DNA from: Limnothrix sp. BL-A-16
GTDB taxonomy: Bacteria; Cyanobacteriota; Cyanobacteriia; CACIAM-69d
Assembly (NCBI GenBank): GCA_041937175.2
Contig: CP166615.1
Span: 1,632,001-1,696,000 of the forward strand
DNA: 64,000 bases
Direction: 5' to 3'
Both the position numbers and the translations under genes were made by a program. This document shows positions 48,906 to 61,378 of this stretch, in pieces (position 1 is the stretch's first letter; every line of letters begins with the position of its first letter). The notes under the pieces were generated by a model, which had not been told where the DNA came from, did no database searches, and saw only the letters and a program-made list of their open reading frames with translations.

Positions 48906-51368
48906 TCATAGCAAATTCATACTCAATAATGACTGTAGTTGCTCATAATCATAATCATGCAAAATACGATTCAGTTGAGCAATGATTAATGCCTCTTCTG
49001 GGGGCAGCTTATGAATCAAATATTCCAGTTCAAAAAAGTCCGCTTCTTGGGCTGCTTTCAGCATTTGCTTACGCCAAAGTTCTGGCAAATTTCGTAATTT
49101 TTGACTCACACGATCCGTTAGTTCAGGGCTGCCCACGGGCGATCGCCCGCTGAAACTGCTGCTGATCTCGCTTTCCAGACCGGTGGATAAGTTGGCATAT
49201 AGATAGCGAACCTGGAGATGATGGGCGATCGCATCTAGAATCGTTTGTTCTCGGAAGGGCTTGCGTACAAATCCATCAAAGCCTGCAGACAAAACCCGTT
49301 GCTCATCTTCCTGGAACGCACTGGCTGTCAGGGCCAAAATCGCTACAAACTGTTGTTTTGACTGGGCTAGCTGCTTAATCTGTCTCATGGCCGAAATGCC
49401 ATCAAGCTGAGGCATTCGTAAATCCATCCAAATCAGGTGAGGCTGCCATTTAGACCACTCCTCGATCGCCTGGTAGCCATCATGAACCTCCCGTACTTCA
49501 AACCCTATGCGCTTGAGCAATTGACTCAAAAGGGTGCAATTTTCCGGGCGATCGTCAGCAATCAAAATGCGGGGAATTGGGGAATCGGGCGCTAACCCAA
49601 TAATTTGCCGGGGATCGGGGTTGGTGCTGTTGGGTTCTCCGATAGGCGCACGGATCCAAAAATGAAAAGCAGTTCCCTGATTGGGCTGGCTTCTGACCGT
49701 AATTTCGCCCCCCATGAGTTGTATAAAAGAGCGACTGAGGGCTAAGCCCAATCCGGTTCCCACGCGGCTCGATCGCCCCGATGCAGTTTGCTCAAAAGAC
49801 TGAAATAACTTGGGTAACTCAGCCGGTTCAATGCCCACCCCGGAATCAATAACCTCCACCATCAGGCGATCGGGCGGGGCATATCGCACTTGCACCGAAA
49901 TGCCCCCTTCCGGCGTGAACTTAATAGCATTGCCTAATAGATTGACCAACACTTGACGCAATTTTCCATCATCCATCACCAGATAGGCAGGCAAGGCTGA
50001 ATCCAGTTCAAAATCGAGGCGCAAGCCCTTTTGATGGGCAGCTAACTCGAACATAGCCACGATTTCTTTAAAGAGCGATCGCACCTCGATCGACTGTGTA
50101 ATTAACTCCGCCTTGCCCGCCTCAATTTTGGCCATCGATAGAAAATTATCAATGAGCCTTAATAGATGCTCACCGCTCATTTGAATTACGGCTAGATTCG
50201 TTTTTTGTTCCTCAGTTAAGCCCACATCACGCTTCATCAGTTGCGAAAATCCAATGACAGCATTCAGCGGCGTTCGCAACTCGTGACTCATATTCGATAA
50301 AAACTCACTCTTAGCCTGATTAGCTAATTCCGCCTGGTGCTTGGCTACTTCGGCCTGCTGTTTTTGGCGGGCTAATTTTTGCTCTGCCAATTGCCGTTGG
50401 GATCGCATGGCCACAAACTCAGTTGCCAGTTGGCCAATTTCACCATTCGCCCTAACCTTGATCGCGCGGTCTAAATTACCTTGCTTCATCAAACGAACGG
50501 CTTCTGTTAATTGCTCCAAAGGCTGAGCGATCGTATTTCCCAAAAAATAACCCATCATGCCAATGGGAAGCGTTGTGACCAAAAAAGCCAACAGAAAACT
50601 AACTCGCACACTTTGTTCATAGGCCAGGAAGCTATCATCTACTTCCGAGTCATTTTCAAATACAATGAAGCCAATGGTTTGATCCTTCAATTGCAGCTCA
50701 GAAATGCGCTGCGACCATGCCTGAGACCACCAACGTTGCAGGCCAAAAAACGGGACACGATCGCCCCGTGCGGCCCGCTCAGGGGGCAGGATATAGTTGC
50801 CTTCTGAGTCCACCACGGAAAACAGCGGTCGGCCGGGGAGCCAGGCTCGCTGATTGGTTCTGGGTTGTCCTGGTTTGGGGGGCAAGAACAGGCCAGGAAT
50901 CGTTGCTGAATCTTCTGGCAACTCCGGGAAATTCGGCGGCAAAGCGGCTTCCGAATTGCACGATGATGCATTCAAGCTGCCCTGAGCCATGGGAGGCGGG
51001 GAAGGCCGCCCAAACATCACCAGGGGGCCTAACCAGGCTTTGAGCCGCTGAAGCCAGCTTTCAACAGGACAATCGATCGGGCGGGGATCCCTAGGCAGGT
51101 CAGCGCTGTGACTACGGGCTAGTTCTGCCCGCCGGCGCTGGATGAAGTGGCCTAAATCTTCCCGCTGCTTGGCCGCATCCCAAGATCCAGCCGATTGGTA
51201 ATAGGCCAACACATGCGATCGATACTTTTCCTGGTGTCCCTGCACGGTGGCCGGCGAAAAGGAAGCCCGCATCATTTCCAGGGTTAAGTGACCGACCAGC
51301 GCCGCCCCCAGCCAGCCACTAGCCATCACAGCCAGGACAATTTTGGTGCGCAGGGGCAAAAACTTCAT
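48906..51368 (-). CDS. Membrane hybrid histidine kinase (TM-sensor-TM-HAMP-HisKA-HATPase-REC)
   Basis: HAMP PLEQL...[48 protein letters not shown] / WMDLRMP / KPF. Confidence 0.93.
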
Positions 51369-51488
51369 GGGCAAATTAGGGGCTGAAGACCCTTGCTTCT
51401 CACTAGTTCAGTCCAGGATCAAAGTCCACGATCGCACGCCACGATCGTCAGAGGGTAGGCTTGGGGATCAAGAGATCAACTGCACAAC

Positions 51489-52157
51489 CTATCCCTTGGC
51501 GCGGCGGCGATGCTTGCGGGCAGCCCGCTCCACCTGATCTTGCTCGTAGTCAATTAGTCGGCCAAAGTAGGGATGTTGTCCCAAGTCGAGCGACATGTAA
51601 ACGTGGCGGCGCACATTGTCAAAGCCCTTGCGGGTAAAGAACTTCACCGCCGGTTCATTGGCGGGATCCGTGTCAATGAATAGGCTGCGGGCCCCTTGGT
51701 GGATCGTGCGCTCCACGAATCGATCGACCAAGGAGTCGGCCACGCCCCGGCGCTGGAATCGGTGATCAACCCCTAGCCAATTGATGTAGCCGTAGGTCAC
51801 CTGCTTCTCAATCACCGTCCCCAACACAAACCCCGCAAACTCGCCCTCCACTTCCGCAATCAGGCAATATTCCGGATCCGTGTTGTAGAGGCCCGTGACC
51901 TCCCACTCATCCCAAGTGCGGTAAAGCGTGGGATACAACTCATTTTGGAAAAGCTGCTCGCCCAGGTGAAAGACCGGAGCGAGATCATCGATCGTCATGT
52001 CGCGAGTAACCACCGCATTGGCCGGGGCCGGCTTGGCGGCCGCAGATTCCGCAGGGGGTGAAGACTCAGACCCGAGACCAGCGTTAGCCCCAGCCTGCAA
52101 TTCGGACGGCTGAGAAGATAGATGAGGCGGATGAGAAGGTGATGCGTCAGTGGTCAC
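51489..52157 (-). CDS. GNAT family N-acetyltransferase
   Basis: WLGVDHRFQRRGVA acetyl-CoA motif, DTDPANEPAVKFFTRKGF; start uncertain. Confidence 0.88.
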   Translation of the reverse strand: MTTDASPSHPPHLSSQPSELQAGANAGLGSESSPPAESAAAKPAPANAVVTRDMTIDDLAPVFHLGEQLFQNELYPTLYRTWDEWEVTGLYNTDPEYCLIAEVEGEFAGFVLGTVIEKQVTYGYINWLGVDHRFQRRGVADSLVDRFVERTIHQGARSLFIDTDPANEPAVKFFTRKGFDNVRRHVYMSLDLGQHPYFGRLIDYEQDQVERAARKHRRRAKG

Positions 52158-52245
52158 AGTAAACCTTAGGGCTGGTTGAACAACACCAAAACCAGCCCGC
52201 GATCGCCATTTTATGCGATCGTCATTTGTCCAGGATCAATGGGAA

Positions 52246-52319
52246 CGGATGCGGAGGGACTCGAACCCCCGACCCTCAGAACCGGAATCTGATGCTCTAT
52301 CCAACTGAGCTACGCATCC
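52246..52319 (-). tRNA. trnR: tRNA-Arg(CCG)
   Basis: Minus strand GGATGCG-TAGCTCAGTTGGATAGAGC-A-TCAGA-TT-CCG-GT-TCTGA...GGTTCGAGTCC...CGCATCC-G; 74 nt. Confidence 0.97.
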
Positions 52320-52492
52320 AGGGTCGGCTACGCCAGCGGCCGCACAAGCGCCACTCAACATCGCTTGGCTATATTACCACTTCTGCCAGCGATCGCCCCT
52401 CTCATTTTAAAATTTTAGGGTTGTAAAAATGGTTTGATATTCGCCAACCCCATCACAACCAACCATTACACCCAACTAAGGAGAAGCTCGCT

Positions 52493-53791
52493 GTGGTTGC
52501 CACTGCCCTTAACACCACCCGTTCAGAAGAAATTTTTGCCGCTGCCCAAGCGCTGATGCCCGGCGGCGTGAACTCGCCCGTGCGCGCCTTCAAGTCCGTA
52601 GGTGGTCAGCCGATCGTGTTCGATCGCGTCCAAGGAGCCTATGCCTGGGATGTGGACAACAACCGCTACATCGACTACGTGGGCACTTGGGGCCCTGCCA
52701 TTTGTGGCCATGCCCATCCCGAAGTGTTGGAAGCCCTGAAAGCCGCGATCGACAAAGGAACCAGCTTCGGCGCGCCCTGCTACCTAGAAAACGTGCTGGC
52801 CCAGATGGTGATCGATGCCGTCCCCAGCATTGAAATGGTGCGCTTCGTCAACTCCGGCACCGAAGCCTGCATCGCCGTCCAGCGCCTGATGCGCGCCTAC
52901 ACCGGCCGCACCAAACTGCTGAAGTTTGAAGGCTGCTACCACGGCCACGGCGATATGTTCTTGGTCAAGGCCGGCTCTGGCGTGGCTACCCTCGGCTTGC
53001 CCGACTCCCCCGGCGTGCCGAAAACCGTCACCGCCGACACCCTGACCGCCCCCTACAACGACCTGGAAGCGGTCAAGGCCCTGTTCGCGGAATATCCCGG
53101 TGAAATCGCGGGTGTGATCCTGGAGCCGATCGTGGGTAACGCGGGCTTCATCGTCCCCGAACCCGGCTTCCTGGCGGGCCTGCGCGAAATCACCAAGGAA
53201 GACGGGGCGTTGTTGGTGTTCGACGAAGTGATGACCGGCTTCCGGATTGCCTACGGTGGCGTGCAAGAAAAATTCGGCATTACCCCCGACCTGACCACCC
53301 TCGGCAAGGTGATCGGTGGCGGGTTGCCCGTGGGTGCTTACGGTGGCCGCCGCGAAATCATGCAAATGGTCGCACCCGCTGGCCCCATGTACCAAGCGGG
53401 AACCCTGTCGGGCAACCCCCTGGCCATGACCGCCGGGATCAAAACCCTGGAGCTGTTGCGTCGTCCCGGCAGCTACGAATATCTCGATCAAATCACCGGC
53501 AAGCTGATTAACGGTTTGCTGGAAATTGCCCGAGAAGCGGGTCACGAAGTCTGCGGTGGCCACATCAGCGGCATGTTCGGCATGTTCTTCACGGCGGGCC
53601 CCGTGCGCAACTACGAAGAAGCCAAGGCCGCTGACCTGACCAAGTTCAGCCGTTTCCACCGGGGCATGTTGGAGCGGGGCGTGTACCTGGCTCCCTCGCA
53701 GTTTGAGGCGGGCTTCACGTCGTTGGCCCACACCGACGAGGACATTGAGGCGACTTTGGCCGCGGCCCGCGAGGTACTGTCGAGCCTGTAA
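52493..53791 (+). CDS. hemL: Glutamate-1-semialdehyde 2,1-aminomutase
   Basis: [46 protein letters not shown] and [10 protein letters not shown] motifs. Confidence 0.98.
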
Positions 53792-53876
53792 TCGCCAACT
53801 GCGCTGAATGACTCAGTTTATGAACGGGGACAGGTTTTGGATCTGTTCCCTCGCTGAGTTTCATCAAACAGCAACC

Positions 53877-53910
53877 CAAGTCCGACAAGCCAGCAACTGT
53901 AACTCCGACA
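53877..53910 (+). promoter_or_regulatory. Two direct-repeat boxes (YAASTCCRACA) upstream of the small membrane ORF
   Basis: CAAGTCCGACA at 53877-53887 and TAACTCCGACA at 53900-53910. Confidence 0.65.
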
Positions 53911-53952
53911 AGGGCCGAGTTTGATAGAGATATCGAGTTCGGAGGACAGCCC

Positions 53953-54120
53953 ATGGAAACCCTCGAAGACATCAAGTTGTTGTTGGAGGTGACGGCGGCT
54001 TTGGCGGCGTTGTCGCAAACCTTTCCGGTGGCGGCAATGTTGGCTGGTTCGGCGGCGATCGCCTGGTTGGTGTTTCCTGGCTTGAAGCGATCGCGTGACA
54101 AGAAGTGTGACAAGAAGTAG
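53953..54120 (+). CDS. 55-aa hydrophobic membrane peptide (not in the ORF track)
   Basis: GGAGG RBS 7 nt before ATG; METLEDIKLLLEVTAALAALSQTFPVAAMLAGSAAIAWLVFPGLKRSRDKKCDKK*. Confidence 0.65.
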   Translation: METLEDIKLLLEVTAALAALSQTFPVAAMLAGSAAIAWLVFPGLKRSRDKKCDKK

Positions 54121-54158
54121 GGGCGATCGAGGGCGTGGAGGCTCACCACTCTGCGCCC

Positions 54159-54578
54159 TCAATTCGTTTGGCGCAACAGGGCAACAAAACCGGCTTGTTC
54201 AAAGTGGCGATCGTGGGCGAGGGCTTCGCGAATTTGCCGATCGCCCATCACGCAAAAGGAGATGCAGTCGGTGTGGCTCCAATTGGAATCGGGGCGATCT
54301 CGATAGAGCTTCAGGGCGCGATCTAGCAACCTCAGTTCAGGTAAAACAATTTCAACTCTGGATGAATTTTGAAGGGTTTCGATTGTTTGTAGGGCAAGCT
54401 GTCTTGTGAATTGACCTCGTTTGGCAGCGCCATTGAGTAATTCATTCAGAACAAAGTGTGTCGTAATCAACTTGTGGTTTGCAGTTTTTGTGGCCCAAGC
54501 GATCGCTTGCCCGTGTAGTGCATCATTGGGACTGATCAAGGCGACTAAATAGCCTGTGTCAATGAATAGGAGATTCAT
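54159..54578 (-). CDS. vapC: PIN-domain (VapC) toxin
   Basis: Acidic tetrad FIDTG / LNELL / HTDCIS / AHDRHFEQAGF; ATGA overlap with the upstream antitoxin. Confidence 0.9.
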   Translation of the reverse strand: MNLLFIDTGYLVALISPNDALHGQAIAWATKTANHKLITTHFVLNELLNGAAKRGQFTRQLALQTIETLQNSSRVEIVLPELRLLDRALKLYRDRPDSNWSHTDCISFCVMGDRQIREALAHDRHFEQAGFVALLRQTN

Positions 54579-54856
54579 TCTTCAACCTTGGGAGCACCGT
54601 AGAGATAGTGATCCAGGTTGATGGAAAAGTCGGGTGGTAAATCTTTCCAGGCTTCTTCGGGTATGTCTTGGGTCGCCATTTCTGCGAGCTTGAGCAAAAC
54701 ATTAGACTCATCAGCAGTGGCATCGCTGGTTGTGAGCGATCGACCAGTAATGTTTAGGAAGCGATTTTTCAGGAATAGGGCAAAGTCAAGAAGTTGTTTA
54801 ATGATCGCGTCAGGCAGTTGATCAATGACGAGAAGAAGTTGCTCTTTATCAGTCAT
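54575..54856 (-). CDS. Cognate antitoxin
   Basis: MTDKEQLLLVIDQLPD..IKQLLDFALFLK...WKDLPPDFSINLDHYLYGAPK; translationally coupled to vapC. Confidence 0.8.
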   Translation of the reverse strand: MTDKEQLLLVIDQLPDAIIKQLLDFALFLKNRFLNITGRSLTTSDATADESNVLLKLAEMATQDIPEEAWKDLPPDFSINLDHYLYGAPKVEE

Positions 54857-54869
54857 GGTGGTTGGCCTG

Positions 54870-57230
54870 CTAGGGTTGGTAGAAGGCTTTGTTGGTGCGA
54901 TCGATCTGGCGTGGGGCATCGAACGATCGATAGAGTTCTTGGGCGCGATCAAGAGATTCTTGAGCCTTGACCGAGTTGCCCATATCCCGATAGGTCAATG
55001 CTTGGAAAAAGTAAGCTTCCGCTAAATCACAGATGGCAGAAATCTTATCAAGGGTCTGAATTGCAGTTTGTTGATAATCCAGGGAGTGATCATAATCTTT
55101 ATCTCGATACAGTTCTCCCAAAATAGATTGAGCTTTAGCTTGCCCTTGAAAGAACGATGACTCTGATGCAAAAAACAAAGCTTCTTCTAATAAGGTGAGA
55201 CTCTGGGATTTGTCTTTTAAATTCAGCATGGCTCGACCCGAAAAGATCAAAAAATATACTCTTCCCCATACAGTTGAATCAGATTTATGTAAATCAAATA
55301 ATTTTCTGGAATCATCTAGTAGATATTTTATTTCTTTGATTTCTGCCTTTGCTATTGATTTGGAAATTTCTTCTTCCGATCTTATCATTGCCTCCATTGC
55401 TTGAAGAAGAGGCTGATAAACATCAGTTGAGGGTGGTTGTGATTCTTCTATGGCTAAGTCAAGGTTTTGAAGACATTTTCTCAAGTCCCACAAATCAAAA
55501 TAGCAATTTACCAAGTTGATATAAGCACAGATTTTGAGTCGAACTTGATTGGGGGTTAACAAACTAGATTCACAAGAAGTGATACAAGCAAGAGATTTAG
55601 AGTGAAATTGAATACCCTTTATAGGGTCGCCAGACATCCAAAAAGAGTCACCAATCAAGTTGTAGAGGTGATATATCATGGGGTGATCTGGGAGAATCGC
55701 TGCCAGATTCTGGCATGTCTCGCAAACTTCCGTAAATAAACCTAGCCTCCATAGATCAGAGCCGAGACTCTGATCCTTACCCCAAATATTTTTTCGTTTT
55801 TTGATTATTGTTTCTAATGCCAACTCATATTCACTGGCAATGTAGTAGTGATAATAAGCTTCAAGGGCAGATCTGGCATCGACAATATCTAGAATTTGTC
55901 CAACGAATTGATCCCAATATTCAGCTGCCTTCGTATGGACTTGATGCCATTGACTAGTATCTACTTCTAAGCGATTTCTGGCTTCAGCTTGAATGACAGG
56001 ATGCAACCAAAATTCCTGAGAAGATGATTCGATCAGTTTTCTTTGTTTCAGGAAGATAATTAGTTTATACTTATGGGAGTCTTCAACATCCCACATCATA
56101 ACAAGCAAAGCTTCGGCGGGAACTTTAGGTACGTCCTGATAGCGATAGCATCCCATTCGACAGAGCAATTTGTAAGCTAGAGAATTGACCTTTTCTAGCC
56201 GATCAAATTGCCCAGCGATTAGAGATTTTAATTCTGGGTTTGCCAACAAATCATTGCGGTAAATTTCCCAGAAACCTGTTAGATTCCCAGAAAAATCAGT
56301 AATAATCTCACCGCATAAACTGCTCATGGCTTTGGCATTTCCACCGTAGGCTTTGTGCATTTCTGCTAAGACAGTTTCATCGATCGCCACTTGCTGCCCC
56401 AAGAAATAAGCCCGCCAAGTTTCCAGATCCAAACCTGAGAGCGAATATTCGGTGATGCCACATTCATAAACCCGGCTACGACTGGTCAGAACCGTAAACG
56501 ATCGCACCGAAGGCTCTGTTAAAACCTCCAACAGATCCACATAGTTACGATGCTCAGGAATGAGCTTGCCAACTTCATCCAAAGCCGGTTCTAGATTGTC
56601 AATTAAAATCCCCACTTGCTTGTCTTGGAGCTGGCGGCGCAATCGCAACAAAGACGTGCCAAAATCGCGTCCCGCGTTTTGTTGAAACTCATTCACCAGC
56701 CAATCTTCAACCACACTCTCAGCAGGCGTAATATTCTTGGTTTCCTTCGCCATCGACAACTCAAGCACCTGCTCAAACCGCGATCGCAAAAAATTCCGCG
56801 CCAGCGTGGTTTTGCCCACACCGCCCACACCCTGAATCACGATCGCCCGATGTTGCGCCGCCAACCGATCGAGATCCGCTAGCGCCTGCTCCCGCCCCAA
56901 AAAATTGAGATTCAACCGATCGCCCGACATTGCCAATAACCGTCCCGCACCAACAAGCTCCGTTGATGCCACTGAGATTGAATTTGTGTTGGCTGGCGGC
57001 TGGGGATCAGCTCCCGTGTCAATCAGCTCGCGCCAGTCCAAGGCCAGTCGATCGCAAATTTCGCTAAATATTGATCGATCAACCGACCCACCATTGAAAA
57101 ATTTTGAGATCGTACTGCGGTGAATCAACAGATCTTCCGACAACGCCTGGTGACTGGGATAGCCACTGCGCGTAAAAGCTCGCTTGACCAATTCCCGCTT
57201 ATTTTCCGCAACGCAGAGCGATCGACCCAT
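54870..57230 (-). CDS. STAND NTPase: XRE-like HTH + NB-ARC/NACHT-like ATPase + TPR
   Basis: N-terminal HTH (SHQALSEDLLIHRSTISKFFNGGSVD...EICDRLALDW), FLGRE, Walker A GVGGVGKTT, Walker B ILIDNLE, LTSR, GGNAKA, LHPVI and C-terminal TPR helices. Confidence 0.88.
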   Translation of the reverse strand: MGRSLCVAENKRELVKRAFTRSGYPSHQALSEDLLIHRSTISKFFNGGSVDRSIFSEICDRLALDWRELIDTGADPQPPANTNSISVASTELVGAGRLLAMSGDRLNLNFLGREQALADLDRLAAQHRAIVIQGVGGVGKTTLARNFLRSRFEQVLELSMAKETKNITPAESVVEDWLVNEFQQNAGRDFGTSLLRLRRQLQDKQVGILIDNLEPALDEVGKLIPEHRNYVDLLEVLTEPSVRSFTVLTSRSRVYECGITEYSLSGLDLETWRAYFLGQQVAIDETVLAEMHKAYGGNAKAMSSLCGEIITDFSGNLTGFWEIYRNDLLANPELKSLIAGQFDRLEKVNSLAYKLLCRMGCYRYQDVPKVPAEALLVMMWDVEDSHKYKLIIFLKQRKLIESSSQEFWLHPVIQAEARNRLEVDTSQWHQVHTKAAEYWDQFVGQILDIVDARSALEAYYHYYIASEYELALETIIKKRKNIWGKDQSLGSDLWRLGLFTEVCETCQNLAAILPDHPMIYHLYNLIGDSFWMSGDPIKGIQFHSKSLACITSCESSLLTPNQVRLKICAYINLVNCYFDLWDLRKCLQNLDLAIEESQPPSTDVYQPLLQAMEAMIRSEEEISKSIAKAEIKEIKYLLDDSRKLFDLHKSDSTVWGRVYFLIFSGRAMLNLKDKSQSLTLLEEALFFASESSFFQGQAKAQSILGELYRDKDYDHSLDYQQTAIQTLDKISAICDLAEAYFFQALTYRDMGNSVKAQESLDRAQELYRSFDAPRQIDRTNKAFYQP

Positions 57231-57345
57231 AGGACGCAGCACAGTAGGGAGAGCAGTTGCCTCATTATAAAAGGCGAAACCTTAGCCCTTCTCAGTGTTG
57301 GCGGCGATCGCTGGGTGACGAGTCACGCCACCCAGCGCCCCAGTC

Positions 57346-57606
57346 CTAGCCCACACGCACCACCAACTGATTACCGTTGTCGTAGCCCACAACCTCCAGG
57401 CGATCGCCCTCTTTGAGCTGCAACCCGTCCCCATTGGCGATCGACCAATAGGACGACTGAAACCACACCCGCCAACCCCCAGTCACCGAGCTGCGATATT
57501 TGACGATCGCCGTCCCGATCGCCGCCGCCTTGCGATCGCCATAGCGCCGCACTTGTTGACTGGCTTGCACACCCACCGCAGACGACCACAACAGTCCCAT
57601 CGACAT
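57346..57606 (-). CDS. Short NfeD-like OB-fold protein
   Basis: WRVWFQSSYWS...LKEGDRLEVVGYDNGNQLVV resembles the NfeD C-terminal beta-barrel; no long TM region. Confidence 0.7.
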   Translation of the reverse strand: MSMGLLWSSAVGVQASQQVRRYGDRKAAAIGTAIVKYRSSVTGGWRVWFQSSYWSIANGDGLQLKEGDRLEVVGYDNGNQLVVRVG

Positions 57607-57673
57607 GACCTTGACCTCTCACAACTCTCTAAACAGCGGTGTTTGAACCGATGAATTTAGTTTGAGCGACGGC

Positions 57674-57750
57674 TGTTGGAGTTACGGATGGTACTGCGTG
57701 GGTGGCTGTCGGACTTGCTGAGGCAATTTGTCGGACTTGTGTTGAAGTTG
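57674..57750 (-). promoter_or_regulatory. Four 11-bp-phased boxes (YAASTYCRACA) upstream of nfeD-like/STAND genes
   Basis: Plus strand TGTTGGAGTTA at 57674, TGTCGGACTTG at 57707 and 57729, TGTTGAAGTTG at 57740 (offsets 33, 22, 11). Confidence 0.7.
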
Positions 57751-57891
57751 TGGGCGATCGCCCGCAGAAACATTTTGGCAGTGACCCTCGAAGATTATCG
57801 TACTAAAATCAAGTGACGGTTGCTGTAACCGTCGTTGTTACAGCCGCTGTTGCGGCCGTTCAAATAGTCTCTGATGGAGGAGGCGCGATCG

Positions 57892-58323
57892 ATGAAAGGT
57901 CACTGTCTGTGTGGGGCGATCGCCATTGAAGTTCCCGACAGAACCACCGTGGAGGCTTGTCACTGTGGGATGTGTCGTCGATGGAGTGGTGGCCCAGCGT
58001 TGGGGATTGCTTGCGGTTCCGATGTGCAAATCGAAGGAAGCGAGAAACTGAAGGTTTACCGATCGTCAGACTGGGCCGAGCGAGCATTTTGCGGTGAATG
58101 CGGCACTCATTTGTTTTATCGGCTGGTTCCTACTCAGGACTATTTTGTGCCAGCGGGATTATTTGCCGATGACCAGCCTTTTGAATTCACTGAGCAAATC
58201 TTTGTCGATCGCAAGCCCCATTACTATGACTTTGCGAATCAGACGGTGAACCTGACGGAGGCGGAAGTGTTTGCTAAGTTTGCCGCGATCGCCCCTGACT
58301 CCTCGGAAGGGGAACCCGCATAG
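57892..58323 (+). CDS. GFA/CENP-V family Zn protein
   Basis: GHCLCGAI, CHCGMCRRW and RAFCGECGTHL motifs; GGAGGAGG RBS. Confidence 0.92.
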   Translation: MKGHCLCGAIAIEVPDRTTVEACHCGMCRRWSGGPALGIACGSDVQIEGSEKLKVYRSSDWAERAFCGECGTHLFYRLVPTQDYFVPAGLFADDQPFEFTEQIFVDRKPHYYDFANQTVNLTEAEVFAKFAAIAPDSSEGEPA

Positions 58324-58534
58324 TTCCGAATTAATTTGCTGAGTTGAAATGCCCCATGATTTTGAGTTTCCAACTCGATCAGGGCATTGCAGTTTTGACT
58401 GTGAATCATGAAAAACACTGGCAGGGCGATCGATTATTTTCGATCAACTTGCCAGTGTTTTTGATGGACTGGTTGTCTATGGATTGCCCCAAAAGCCCAT
58501 CAACGTTGATTTCTGGGTTGCAAAAATGCAGTTC

Positions 58535-59443
58535 CTAGATTTGCTCGGGAACCCCAATTTTCATCACCTTCATGGGAGTGGTGATCCGTCTGGATTGCAA
58601 GGCTGCGGCGAACTGTTCCGGTGTACCCGGCAACGAGAACAAGCCGTAGTGCATGGGCACCACTAATTTGGGGCGCACCAATTCCACCGCTTCAGCGGCG
58701 CGATCGGGGCCCATGGTGAATTTGCCGCCAATGCAGGTCAACATCAAATCCACGGGGCCAAATTTAGGAATTAGGGCCATATCTCCGAACAGGTCTGTAT
58801 CGCCAGTGTGGTAAAGGGTGGGGCCGTTTTTCACCTTGATCCAAAAGCCACCTGGGTTTCCTGCATAAAAGGGTTGCGGGTTGCCATCGGTGCTGACGGT
58901 GGAACTATGAACCGCTGGCACGAAGGCCACTTCCACATCCCCGTCCAGCAAGGAAATTTGACCGCCAAAGTTACCGAGGGCCGGAAATTGCATTTGTTCT
59001 TGGGGGTAGCCCAACACGGAAACCAGGGCCTTGGCTAGGTCAAAGGTGGCCACCAGTTGGGCTCCGGTTTTTTTGCCGATCGCCACGGCATCTCCCACAT
59101 GGTCGTTGTGTCCATGGGTGATGAGCACCAAATCAGCGCGATCGAGCTGGTTCAGGACTGCTTTGCCTTCGGGGTTGGCCGGATTTTGCAGCCAGGGATC
59201 GAGCCACAGCACTTTGCCCGAAGGGGTGGTGAGCTTGAAGGCCGATTGGCCATACCAAACCAGTTCCGTGCCGCCGGGGGTTGCGGCCTGGCTGGGCTGG
59301 GTGGCTCCCCAACTGACGATGCCCCCGATCGCGGCCAGGCCAATGACCAACATGGTTAAGAGTCCCCATTTCAGACTGCCCAAGGGGGGCCAGTGGGGTC
59401 GCCAACGGGGCGATCGCGCCGCCAAATTACGCATACTGATCAA
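58535..59443 (-). CDS. Exported metallo-beta-lactamase-fold hydrolase (UPF0173-like)
   Basis: WYGQSAF, DPWL, THGHNDH, AVHSS, YHTGDT and VPMHY motifs; N-terminal hydrophobic segment; start uncertain. Confidence 0.88.
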   Translation of the reverse strand: MISMRNLAARSPRWRPHWPPLGSLKWGLLTMLVIGLAAIGGIVSWGATQPSQAATPGGTELVWYGQSAFKLTTPSGKVLWLDPWLQNPANPEGKAVLNQLDRADLVLITHGHNDHVGDAVAIGKKTGAQLVATFDLAKALVSVLGYPQEQMQFPALGNFGGQISLLDGDVEVAFVPAVHSSTVSTDGNPQPFYAGNPGGFWIKVKNGPTLYHTGDTDLFGDMALIPKFGPVDLMLTCIGGKFTMGPDRAAEAVELVRPKLVVPMHYGLFSLPGTPEQFAAALQSRRITTPMKVMKIGVPEQI

Positions 59444-59745
59444 CCTCTTAATCTCTGAATTTCTGCAACCAAGGTTCTACGCAGGCTTGACGAAGGCTCG
59501 ACGGTCGAGTTTTCTCGAAGTTTTGCGATCGAATCACCGTCCCATCACCCCCTCATCACCGCTCCAAACGGCATGAGGCGATCGATCCTCTGCGGAGATA
59601 ATGACTACCCCATTTAGAATTCCCTGGGGTAGATCAAGCCAATGGTAAAGTAGACGGCGTTTGGTGTGCGGGTGCTAACGGCATTCTTGGGCCCCGCTCC
59701 CTTAATTTCCCGTCACTTTCCTGTTTTTTGAGGCGATTATTTCGC

Positions 59746-60690
59746 ATGAGTAGCAATCCCCCAAGCATCGCTAACCATCCCGCTCTGGTGGATCAAAATG
59801 AGCCAGGCGATCGCTCTGGGGAAATAGCCTATCCTGCTTTTTCTTTGGTGTTGCCGGTTTTTAATGAAGAATTGGGCGTTGCCCCCACCATTGAACATTT
59901 GCAAGCCACCCTCAGGGCCTATCCGGGTGTCTATGAAATCATTGCGGTGAACGATGGTTCCAGCGATCGAACCGGTGAAATTTTGCATCAACTGCCCGGT
60001 CTTCGGGTCATTGATCACAACATCAATCGGGGCTATGGTGCGGCCTTAAAAACCGGAATTCGTCACGCCAAATATTCTTTGATTGTGATTACCGATGCGG
60101 ATGGAACCTATCCCAATGAACGGATTCCAGCCTTGGTGAATTTAATTCAACTGGCGGAAGCGGACATGGTTGTGGGGTCGCGAACTGGGGAGAATGTGCA
60201 ATATTCCAATTTGCGGAAAATTCCCAAGTGGTTTCTCGTTCGCTTTGCGGAGTGGATTACCAAAACCAAGATTCCTGATTTGAACAGTGGCTTGCGGATT
60301 TTTCGGAAGGAAATTGTCGATCAATTTTTGAATATTTTGCCCAATACCTTTAGCTTCACCACCACCATTACGGTGGCCATGCTCACCAATGGCTATACGG
60401 TGCATTACGAGCCGATCGACTATCACCCGCGCCAAGGCCGCAGCAAAATTAAACCGATTCGGGATACTTTGCGATTTGTGCAAATTATTCTGCGCACGGG
60501 GCTTTATTTTGCGCCGATGCGAATTTTGATGCCCGTTTCAGCGGCCTTTGCGATCGGGTTTTGTGTTTCGTTGGCGCAAGATATCTTTGTGCGCAATGAC
60601 TTGACGGAAACCACCCTAATTCTGCTGTTGGCTGCCACCCAAACGGCCATTTTGGCCTTGCTGGCCGACATGATTGATAAACGGCTTTGA
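59746..60690 (+). CDS. GT2 glycosyltransferase (DPM1-like)
   Basis: LPVFNEE, VNDGSSD, NRGYGAA, TDADGTY and DLNSGLR motifs; two C-terminal TMs. Confidence 0.9.
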   Translation: MSSNPPSIANHPALVDQNEPGDRSGEIAYPAFSLVLPVFNEELGVAPTIEHLQATLRAYPGVYEIIAVNDGSSDRTGEILHQLPGLRVIDHNINRGYGAALKTGIRHAKYSLIVITDADGTYPNERIPALVNLIQLAEADMVVGSRTGENVQYSNLRKIPKWFLVRFAEWITKTKIPDLNSGLRIFRKEIVDQFLNILPNTFSFTTTITVAMLTNGYTVHYEPIDYHPRQGRSKIKPIRDTLRFVQIILRTGLYFAPMRILMPVSAAFAIGFCVSLAQDIFVRNDLTETTLILLLAATQTAILALLADMIDKRL

Positions 60691-60769
60691 GGGCTGTTTC
60701 GTGGGTTTTACGTGGCGTTTGCGTGGGCTTGGCGAGTCAGCGCGAATCAACCGATCGCCCCGTGGCCCC

Positions 60770-61378
60770 TTAAAACTTATTGGGTTCGGGCTTGGGGGCT
60801 TCGCAGGGTTGCCGCACCAACGTGCCATTGGGCAGGGTTGCCCCACATAACTCGGCTCCGTCGCTCCGAATATTCACCAGGTGAGCATCTCTGAGGTTGG
60901 CATTGGCCAAGCTGGCTCCCCGCAAGTCCGCGAACATCAAATTAGAACGAGCAAAGTTCACTCGATCGAGCTGGGCTGCACTGAAATTGGTGGCCCGTAA
61001 ATTCGCCCGTTCTAAGTTGGCTCCCCGAAAATCGGCCCTGGTGCAGTCGGCTGCGCCTAAGTTGGCCTCTGCCAAGTTTGCCCGCTGGAGATTGACGTTT
61101 CGCAGGTTGGCTCCGTAGAGGTTCGCCGATCGCAGATCCGCGTCTTGCAGGTTCAAACTGGTGAGGTCTCGATAGCGCAAATCGCAGCCTTGGCAACGGT
61201 TGAAAGCCCGCAGTTGCGCCAGCGGATCCAAATTGGGACGGGCGGCAGAAACTTGGGCCACAGGGGCCAACGGCAACCCGATCGCCAGGCCGACCCCCAA
61301 AGCCATGCCCCTGATCGGCCCTAAACGGGCCAGTCGATCAAGATTGCGCCAAGACTGGTGAGCGGTAATTTTGGCCAC
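60770..61378 (-). CDS. Pentapeptide repeat protein (exported/lumenal)
   Basis: Signal peptide, CQGCDL, A(N/D)Lxx repeats and ATLPNG end. Confidence 0.9.
   Translation of the reverse strand: MAKITAHQSWRNLDRLARLGPIRGMALGVGLAIGLPLAPVAQVSAARPNLDPLAQLRAFNRCQGCDLRYRDLTSLNLQDADLRSANLYGANLRNVNLQRANLAEANLGAADCTRADFRGANLERANLRATNFSAAQLDRVNFARSNLMFADLRGASLANANLRDAHLVNIRSDGAELCGATLPNGTLVRQPCEAPKPEPNKF

Follow-up and report, generated by a model that had tools for sequence, protein, structure and literature searches.

A STAND protein with an XssQ-like head and repeated upstream boxes: a candidate mini-regulon in a cyanobacterial cassette

Described HTH-STAND activators and the Limnothrix locus

Transcription activators that combine a helix-turn-helix (HTH) with a signal transduction ATPase that has numerous domains (STAND) are already known, namely XssQ, AfsR, GutR and MalT, and the locus described here is not a new kind of system. 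It lies in the 4,555,668-bp (4.56-Mb) genome of the cyanobacterium Limnothrix sp. BL-A-16, within a stretch of 64,000 nucleotides (G000:C1:1632001-1696000) that we call the window and whose numbering is used for the coordinates below. Here a STAND gene is flanked by two small genes, the NfeD-like gene nfeD and orf55, an open reading frame (ORF) of 55 amino acids (aa), each preceded by direct repeats of an 11-bp box, YAASTCCRACA. We read window 53793-57769 as a self-contained accessory cassette built around a STAND that would act as a transcription factor, an explanation to which, taken as a whole, we assign a probability of roughly 70%. A STAND-controlled mini-regulon is well supported, and the boxes, which stand before two putative target genes, are most likely the binding sites of the STAND's HTH.

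The cyanobacterial precedent is XssQ (Slr5058) of Synechocystis sp. PCC 6803, which the available text of PMC8205485 describes as a STAND-type activator of the synechan (xss) genes, acting below the XssS/XssR two-component pair and controlling polysaccharide genes. It was called a new STAND type there owing to its N-terminal HTH, and its homologues were said to be widespread in cyanobacteria. According to the same text, XssQ binds single or tandem copies of AAGTTNNAC (AAGTTXXAC), the shift of an xssE upstream fragment in an electrophoretic mobility shift assay (EMSA) is competed by native and not by consensus-mutated DNA, and the xss target genes are down in an xssQ deletion.

Residues 3-76 of the window STAND align with residues 4-77 of XssQ at 35% identity over 74 aa (BLASTP, E = 2e-9). 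Beyond the HTH, the BLASTP comparison of the two proteins aligns a P-loop stretch alone (E = 0.028), and the plasmid pSYSM is not among the 15 plasmid records matched by the whole window STAND. Both are cyanobacterial STAND NTPases of ~785 aa with an N-terminal HTH of the same family; the NTPase of XssQ is annotated as NACHT, whereas that of the window STAND is NB-ARC-like/nSTAND1 and is followed by a sensor of tetratricopeptide repeats (TPR). The window locus also differs in having no kinase or regulator as a neighbour and two mini-proteins as putative targets. Judging by these alignments, the window STAND is not an XssQ orthologue and has the head alone in common with it. The box cores at the locus (AAGTCCGAC, AACTCCGAC and AACTCCAAC) are arranged in tandem and, of the seven positions that AAGTTNNAC specifies, match all but one or two. 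A scan of 45 kb of pSYSM gave a single tandem AAGTTNNAC pair, ~96 nt upstream of a coding sequence inside the xss cluster, and its spacing of 23 bp is the same as that of the orf55 boxes. Of all the arguments for the STAND as reader of the boxes, the strongest is that an XssQ-homologous head adjoins clusters of an XssQ-like site core.

A second precedent is AfsR, a large SARP of Streptomyces coelicolor. In the available text of PMC10936776 it has the order DNA-binding domain, nucleotide-binding oligomerisation domain (NOD) and TPR, and binds 11-bp direct repeats, at spacings of 11 or 22 bp, that overlap with a poor -35 element, place the 3' repeat 8 bp from the -10 and activate transcription; the afsS promoter is its characterised target. 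The window STAND has the same order of DNA-binding head, NOD and TPR, and its boxes are likewise 11-bp direct repeats over a poor -35. AfsR differs in being actinobacterial, in its OmpR-type winged helix and BTAD head, as against a five-helix XRE-like head here, and in the distance to the -10, which is 14 nt at the window locus. We take afsS to adjoin afsR and to encode a small protein.

MalT of E. coli and GutR of B. subtilis are cited as non-immune STAND regulators in the available part of PMC13581612. Like the proposed regulator they are STAND transcription activators, dependent on ligand and ATP; they differ in that both control sugar catabolism and neither has an NfeD-like partner. GutR presumably has the order N-terminal HTH, NTPase and TPR. 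MalT carries a LuxR HTH at its C-terminus; unlike MalT and the LAL regulators, the window STAND has its HTH at the N-terminus and TPR at the C-terminus. The original prediction for this DNA, made from the letters alone, had named no characterised system with this architecture, a claim overturned by XssQ (PMC8205485), AfsR (PMC10936776) and GutR (PMC13581612), as far as the available texts describe them.

Immune and NLR-type STANDs (Avs, bNACHT, Apaf-1, CED-4 and plant NLRs) share the arrangement of NOD, winged helix and repeats (structural matches 5juy, 7xe0, 4m9s and 8dgc), and the window STAND's family resembles them in its patchy distribution and its fast divergence between strains of the same genus. 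The difference lies in the N-terminal module of the window STAND, which is a DNA-binding HTH and not a nuclease, protease or TIR. HTH heads on NTPases of conflict systems were described by Kaur et al. 2020 (PMC7159879), the available text of which does not mention NfeD. A literature search returned no paper pairing NfeD with 'STAND NTPase', the supplements of PMC8205485 with their list of XssQ homologues, which may include family members, lying outside that search; one on nSTAND/'nSTAND1' returned nothing relevant, the 'nSTAND1' papers noting such HTH heads on conflict NTPases and, like Kaur et al., not NfeD. The partnership of a STAND with an NfeD-type OB-fold protein and the NB-ARC-like/TPR family with swapped heads are apparently undescribed, and this family appears to be unstudied.

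The gene between the two box clusters (54870-57230, minus strand; 786 aa from the ATG at 57230) had been predicted to encode a STAND with an XRE-like N-terminal HTH, and both assignments held. In Pfam it scores just over the cut-off for nSTAND1 (PF20703; 27.2 bits, cut-off 27.1) and just under that for NB-ARC (23.1 bits, cut-off 23.5), and it also matches AAA_16 and TPR_12 (E = 5.5e-8); Pfam gave no match to Trans_reg_C or BTAD. The head is XRE-like by a match to HTH_3 that is below the Pfam cut-off (E = 0.0077; 1.7e-5 for the orthologue in G021). The HTH (residues ~9-69) is followed by a linker (73-105), Walker A (G137-T141), Walker B (D211), the sensor-1 residue R251 and H410, the MHD-like histidine of the winged helix, which lies in LHP; a helical region and then TPR extend from the winged helix to the C-terminus. 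Alignments of 13 and of 45 family members show no variation at G137, G139, K140, T141, D211 or R251, and H410 is likewise invariant in 45 family sequences. An AlphaFold2 (AF2) model (pLDDT 87.5) contains a five-helix head, a disordered linker of ~33 aa, the NOD, the winged helix and a TPR solenoid. In Foldseek it matches best the TPR-sensor STAND 6mfv (E = 3e-13), and further matches include Apaf-1, plant resistosomes and NLRs, CED-4, Avs3 and MalT (8bob, E = 1.5e-6). PADLOC-DB 2.0 yielded P-loop-length matches alone for the STAND (E = 2e-4 or weaker) and none for nfeD or orf55, and, P-loop or TPR pieces apart, the STAND had no family in PADLOC or NCBIfam.

Box clusters, promoters and their conservation

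Exact copies of YAASTCCRACA number five in the window (53877+, 53900+, 57674-, 57707- and 57729-) against 0.17 expected, a count reached by none of 100 shuffled windows. Two of them, at 53877-53887 (CAAGTCCGACA) and 53900-53910 (TAACTCCGACA) on the plus strand, are direct repeats 23 bp apart upstream of orf55 (53953-54120, plus strand), and a degenerate third box (53866-53876, plus strand) abuts the first on its upstream side. The others belong to a cluster of four direct repeats on the minus strand (57750-57740, 57739-57729, 57717-57707 and 57684-57674) upstream of nfeD (57346-57606, minus strand). The original prediction had counted four copies here; three are exact, and the fourth (CAACTTCAACA at 57740-57750) stands only with one mismatch. 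Its other statements on the boxes were borne out: the successive nfeD spacings are 11, 22 and 33 bp, orf55 has two copies, both exact, each cluster reads along the transcription of its downstream gene, and the window holds no further exact copy. Allowing one mismatch gives 16 matches against 4.6 expected, and the 10 beyond the two clusters are scattered singles. A genome-wide scan, which it had proposed, found 46 exact boxes on both strands, clustered solely at the two cassette sites; chance would give ~0.016 same-strand pairs within 70 nt.

Because a gap of 14 nt lies between the proximal box and a -10-like hexamer, TAAATT (57659-57654) at nfeD and TAGAGA (53925-53930) at orf55, the promoter-proximal box covers the -35 position at both genes. 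A scan with the sigma-70 consensus found no promoter at either box site and no recognisable -35. Overlap of a box with a -35 position that lacks the consensus is the geometry of activator-dependent promoters, as far as the sequence can be read. Terminator-like hairpins bracket the box-bearing units: one follows orf55 (54129-54160, plus strand; a similar hairpin was judged by eye to be present in G002), and the other lies upstream of the nfeD boxes (57833-57815, minus strand), where it would insulate the cassette. The STAND has a candidate promoter of its own, with a TATAAT -10 hexamer (57264-57269, minus strand) 34 nt upstream of its ATG; the equivalent position in the related genome G001 holds TGTATAAT.

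Three close relatives, all metagenome contigs, encode STANDs 73-75% identical to that of the window. Two of them (L150 and L152) retain the order boxes-nfeD-STAND-orf55-boxes, and L152 also retains the adjoining hemL. Aligned leaders (five for nfeD and three for orf55) differ in their spacers and flanks and hardly or not at all in the boxes. The nfeD boxes are conserved in L150, L152 and G001, and a deletion in L150 of exactly 11 nt between the central two leaves their phase intact; the orf55 boxes are invariant in L150 and L152 with a variable spacer between them, and the degenerate third orf55 box is better conserved in relatives than in the window. The STAND of G001 is 48% identical to the window's, though the nfeD leader is ~90% identical. 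The module is present twice in G001, in diverged copies on small contigs, and the STAND of one of them contains a TAG; the second nfeD-STAND copy has just upstream of it (L038, G001:C45, ~1600-1700) a 12-nt tandem repeat (GGGACAGATTCA-like, at least six copies).

In G002, of the same genus, the flanks (window 50000-53792 and 57770-61000) have 92-93% identity. Missing from it are orf55 with its boxes and, separately, nfeD with its boxes and all but the last 26 codons of the STAND; a hairpin and a VapB-like gene between the two gaps are retained. A box-pair pattern, AAGTCNGNCA-N(1-24)-AAGTCNGNCA, has no match in G002 and one match each in G000 and G001. Because G002 lacks the STAND and both box-bearing units, these appear to be present or absent together within the genus.

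Relatives of the NOD/TPR body occur at 35-41% identity in many cyanobacterial families: STAND relatives are encoded in at least 566 of 600 candidate stretches from a species-representative collection, and the NB-ARC-like/TPR family (match at E <= 1e-30) is present in 163 of 401 sampled cyanobacterial genomes (~40%). Over the first ~100 residues at least four kinds of head can be told apart, XRE/XssQ-like, LuxR/sigma-r4-like (GerE, E = 3.5e-9 in L119), 'RxRxRVL' (RxRVL) and 'ASxQGL'. At the 10 XRE-type loci, which represent about six independent lineages, at least two copies of AASTCNRNCA stand beside the STAND or nfeD in eight and a single copy in one, and the remaining locus has an 11-nt-spaced TGTAAGTCA repeat; the AAGTC half of the XRE-type boxes is constant and the 3' half varies with lineage. 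An unbiased pair scan of the 401 genomes was too noisy to serve as a test by itself.

The other heads come with other motifs, in counts that overstate independence, many of the loci being Nostocales kin: TTYCCGAC at the LuxR-like type (89 loci; 56 copies in 37.7 kb upstream vs 41 in 896 kb elsewhere), CCGATYTTAAG at the RxRVL type (nine loci; six upstream vs four elsewhere) and TGAGCTA at the ASxQGL type (two loci; seven upstream vs two elsewhere). Over the 200 nt upstream of 78 STAND ORFs, TCCGAC is matched 41 times, compared with 0-3 times in each 100-nt bin elsewhere, and near STAND ORFs it is almost always on the strand reading away from the STAND. Across the family, box type appears to follow HTH type. 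The head would then have been swapped at least four times within one NOD/TPR family, each head with a separate repeat motif, which amounts to a natural experiment in the rewiring of NLR-like switches to DNA, and the XssQ precedent would extend to the same DNA-binding head grafted onto a different NOD and sensor. One apparent cross-type motif enrichment was discarded as a single conserved Nostoc sequence and not a repeat. At several Nostoc loci (L043, L046, L061, L062, L070, L072, L114 and others) a single copy of a conserved element, TCCGAAAACTCCAGCAATATAA, stands ~77 nt upstream of the STAND ORF and is oriented with the STAND; it is distinct from the CCGAC repeats.

A mechanism and its competitors

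The original prediction of a STAND-controlled regulon survives in its central part: the boxes appear to belong with the STAND because they are conserved, are lost with it in G002, follow the type of HTH across the family and resemble the EMSA-validated site of the XssQ HTH; for its link to SPFH proteins there is no support (see below). We hypothesize that a ligand at the TPR would release autoinhibition, whereupon ADP would be exchanged for ATP and the NOD would oligomerise. Several HTH heads, tethered by the 33-aa linkers, could then load onto the phased boxes, the proximal one at the -35 of promoters without a -35 consensus, and transcription of nfeD and orf55 would be switched on. Expression of the STAND itself would come from the TATAAT promoter and perhaps, in addition, from nfeD transcripts that run on into it, and the OB protein probably also works with the STAND, as an adaptor, feedback partner or effector. 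We infer binding by this particular STAND, activation over repression, the positions of the -10 elements and transcription start sites (TSS), the signal, and the roles of the small proteins.

Several observations weigh against this scheme. The -10-like hexamers, and with them the 14-nt distances, were called by eye at both nfeD and orf55, and the 23-bp spacing of the two orf55 boxes is no exact multiple of 11 (22). The box-pair scan of the 401 genomes was non-specific, with matches in 88 genomes, many of them tandem repeats; a reversed-pattern control also matched many genomes, and 4 of the 30 loci retrieved adjoin a STAND, two of these four belonging to the window's own genus. The genomes compared are kin, and as samples they are not independent. 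At most Nostocales-type loci the boxes have no conserved small gene downstream and may serve autoregulation only.

The last point also bears on the possibility that the boxes are operators, through which the STAND's HTH, resting or activated, would keep nfeD and orf55 repressed and control its own gene. Repressors are frequent among XRE-type HTHs, and a protein on the proximal box at -35 could occlude RNA polymerase. The Nostocales-type boxes, moreover, lie just upstream of the STAND itself, and no conserved divergent gene was found at those loci, the largest cluster of neighbours covering 13 of 78. However, neither promoter has a recognisable -35, which is typical of activator dependence; the homologous XssQ is an activator whose targets are down in the xssQ deletion, on the available text of PMC8205485; and AfsR-type direct repeats that overlap the -35 activate, on that of PMC10936776. 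We consider repression unlikely.

Another regulator might read the boxes, the adjacency of the STAND being incidental. The source genome encodes a second HTH-STAND (C1:941096-943432, minus strand), a 778-aa protein of NACHT type and XssQ-like architecture, the head of which is 39% identical to that of the window STAND over 72 aa (E = 6e-8), and this paralogue could bind the same boxes. Phased 11-bp direct repeats are also typical of OmpR/PhoB-family sites, so that a response regulator of that type is a second candidate. Against both readers, exact boxes cluster at the cassette alone in the genome, they accompany the STAND in relatives and are missing along with it from G002, and the type of box changes with the HTH type of the adjacent STAND in distant lineages; no obvious boxes or repeats were seen upstream of the paralogue. 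A reader other than the STAND is improbable on these grounds.

An action of the repeats in RNA, as 5' leaders pairing with the Shine-Dalgarno (SD) region in anti-SD hairpins, is very improbable. RNAalifold does pair the proximal nfeD box region with the SD region, and CTCCGA in the second orf55 box can pair with TCGGAG at the SD. Yet none of 38 predicted pairs has a compensatory change, the covariation term is unfavourable (+1.92), three pairs are broken in L152, and the upstream boxes are without pairing partners. An Rfam scan of window 52000-59000 gave one tRNA and two chance-level matches, none at the boxes, and the terminator-like hairpins and -10-like hexamers put the boxes upstream of the likely TSS. 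Finally, the mutually inverted clusters at the edges of a 4-kb segment absent in G002 recall the transposase-binding ends of a mobile cassette, like Tn7 or Mu subterminal sites, a reading that we rejected as barely credible: the cassette holds no transposase or integrase, G002 has two separate deletions and a STAND remnant in place of a clean empty site, in other genomes just one side has boxes, which stand between STAND and partner gene, and the boxes lie 20-85 nt inside the indel borders.

The small proteins, STAND-NfeD linkage and surroundings

The 86-aa nfeD product falls short of the Pfam cut-off for NfeD (PF01957; E = 9.8e-4, 19.7 bits, cut-off 29.1; 19.5 bits in the genome search). The NfeD assignment is nevertheless supported because its relatives adjoining homologous STANDs, all of which align in one profile, pass the cut-off (38.6-44.2 bits), because the AF2 model forms a five-strand barrel (residues 31-85, pLDDT ~90) and because the top Foldseek matches are the NfeD C-terminal OB domains 2exd, 3wwv and 3cp0 (probability 0.99-1.0, with weak E-values of 0.025-0.095). 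The likeness to P. horikoshii PH0471/1510-C (2exd, 3wwv) and to 3cp0 is confined to this OB barrel: the 86-aa protein has no transmembrane (TM) segment, no ClpP-like protease part and no adjoining SPFH gene, and in its relatives the OB is fused to a STAND. The original prediction had invoked the partnering of NfeD with SPFH proteins. No SPFH gene lies near the locus (1.689 Mb), the five Band_7 genes of the genome being at 72 kb, 163 kb, 294 kb, 2.56 Mb and 4.53 Mb and the nearest more than 800 kb away, and a canonical NfeD-SPFH operon stands elsewhere (NfeD at C1:72299 beside an SPFH gene at 72566), so the claim finds no support at this locus.

orf55 encodes a hydrophobic protein with a basic tail and is preceded by an SD sequence (GGAGGA, 53941-53946) 6 nt before the ATG. 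It is lineage-restricted, matching only three protein clusters among 5.8 billion, and has no Pfam or NCBIfam match. Among three sequences, 8 of 10 variable codon columns are synonymous-only, and both small genes are, to judge from their sequences, real. The protein has 55 aa in the window, where the 3' end of the gene (54098-54120) has 12 nt duplicated in tandem (GTGACAAGAAGT twice), which adds CDKK to the 51-aa form of the relatives.

NfeD-like sequence is found at 25 of 123 STAND loci, as a separate neighbouring gene in 15 and as a fusion in 10. The separate genes are usually divergent from the STAND, with boxes in between. In the fusions (~850-920 aa) the OB stands in frame at the N-terminus of the STAND, ahead of a retained XssQ-like head. 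Because of this fusion to the STAND N-terminus, the OB protein probably acts together with the STAND, and the ~10 fused relatives suggest that the OB is a physical partner and not an output only. A rough by-eye cross-match of 150 listed NfeD-like and 150 listed STAND matches gave at least ~36 entries, in 25 genomes, that lie within ~3 kb of each other or are fused. NfeD-like mini-genes occur in 210 of the 401 genomes (412 protein clusters, mostly annotated 'NfeD family protein'), and many of them are not beside a STAND, a STAND relative adjoining 6 of 14 retrieved contexts. At one locus (L183, G214:C168:5000-12500) at least six tandem NfeD-like mini-genes are divergent from one STAND orthologue.

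A second kind of small protein, of ~75 aa with two TM segments and ending in ESxR, is conserved at seven STAND loci, and in L169 and L170 its gene directly follows boxes. Comparison of orf55 with this family by hhalign gave no detectable homology (probability 0.2%). At three further loci (L171, L172 and L173) a shorter HTH-NOD protein of 460-480 aa stands beside a conserved ~430-aa protein, and an NfeD-like match adjoins the HTH-NOD protein in all three, in L171 by coordinates alone. The 75-aa TM gene is present in L171 and L173, and L172 has a different single-TM ORF at that place. These 'split' relatives may represent one and the same system, its sensor being encoded separately.

A wider proposal, which we regard as speculative and on present evidence doubtful, is that NfeD-like OB mini-proteins and small membrane proteins (orf55 and the ~75-aa two-TM family) form the effector or adaptor arm of an undescribed cyanobacterial NLR-like family, the OB being deployed either by box induction or by N-terminal fusion, and that the cassette is an inducible, membrane-directed stress or anti-phage switch of abortive-infection-like kind, with an NfeD-type OB that has a non-SPFH partner. 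In the fusion mode, if true, oligomerisation of the STAND would act directly on the OB module, and if the small proteins are membrane effectors, this NLR-like system would respond by transcribing the gene of a toxic or protective peptide. That linkage and fusion recur suggests a function for the abundant stand-alone OBs annotated 'NfeD family protein' that have no stomatin or flotillin partner. The STAND-controlled mini-regulon itself offers a compact, testable pair of cis-element and regulator for a STAND family of ~40% of the sampled cyanobacterial genomes.

The cassette (~4 kb) has the order boxes-orf55, VapBC, HTH-STAND-TPR and nfeD-boxes, with orf55 and nfeD as its edge genes, both pointing inward, and is flanked by hemL (52493-53791, plus strand) on one side and a GFA-family gene (57874-58323, plus strand) on the other. 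The PIN (VapC-like) toxin gene (54159-54578, minus strand; Pfam PIN, E = 6e-8) and the VapB-like antitoxin gene (54575-54856, minus strand), the likely start of which is the MTDKEQ methionine, lie directly downstream of the STAND. Homologues of VapB were found in L150 and G002, where in the latter the VapB-like gene is an orphan. Because vapC was not found at the corresponding place in L150, L152 or G002, the pair is a passenger outside the core of the cassette. Toxin-antitoxin genes adjoin several orthologous STANDs (L023, L032, L035, L013, L041 and L042, from ORF listings and sequence reading).

PADLOC and NCBIfam held no family for the nfeD-like gene, the 75-aa TM family or a ~330-aa Nostocales neighbour. 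At four LuxR-type loci (L025, L040, L049 and L089) the gene divergent from the STAND encodes a protein of ~320-365 aa, the L025 copy of which has no Pfam or NCBIfam match, and a uppS-like gene follows it in L025, L040 and L089. Outside the cassette, a tRNA gene (52246-52319, minus strand; Rfam, 65.6 bits) lies between an acetyltransferase-like ORF and hemL.

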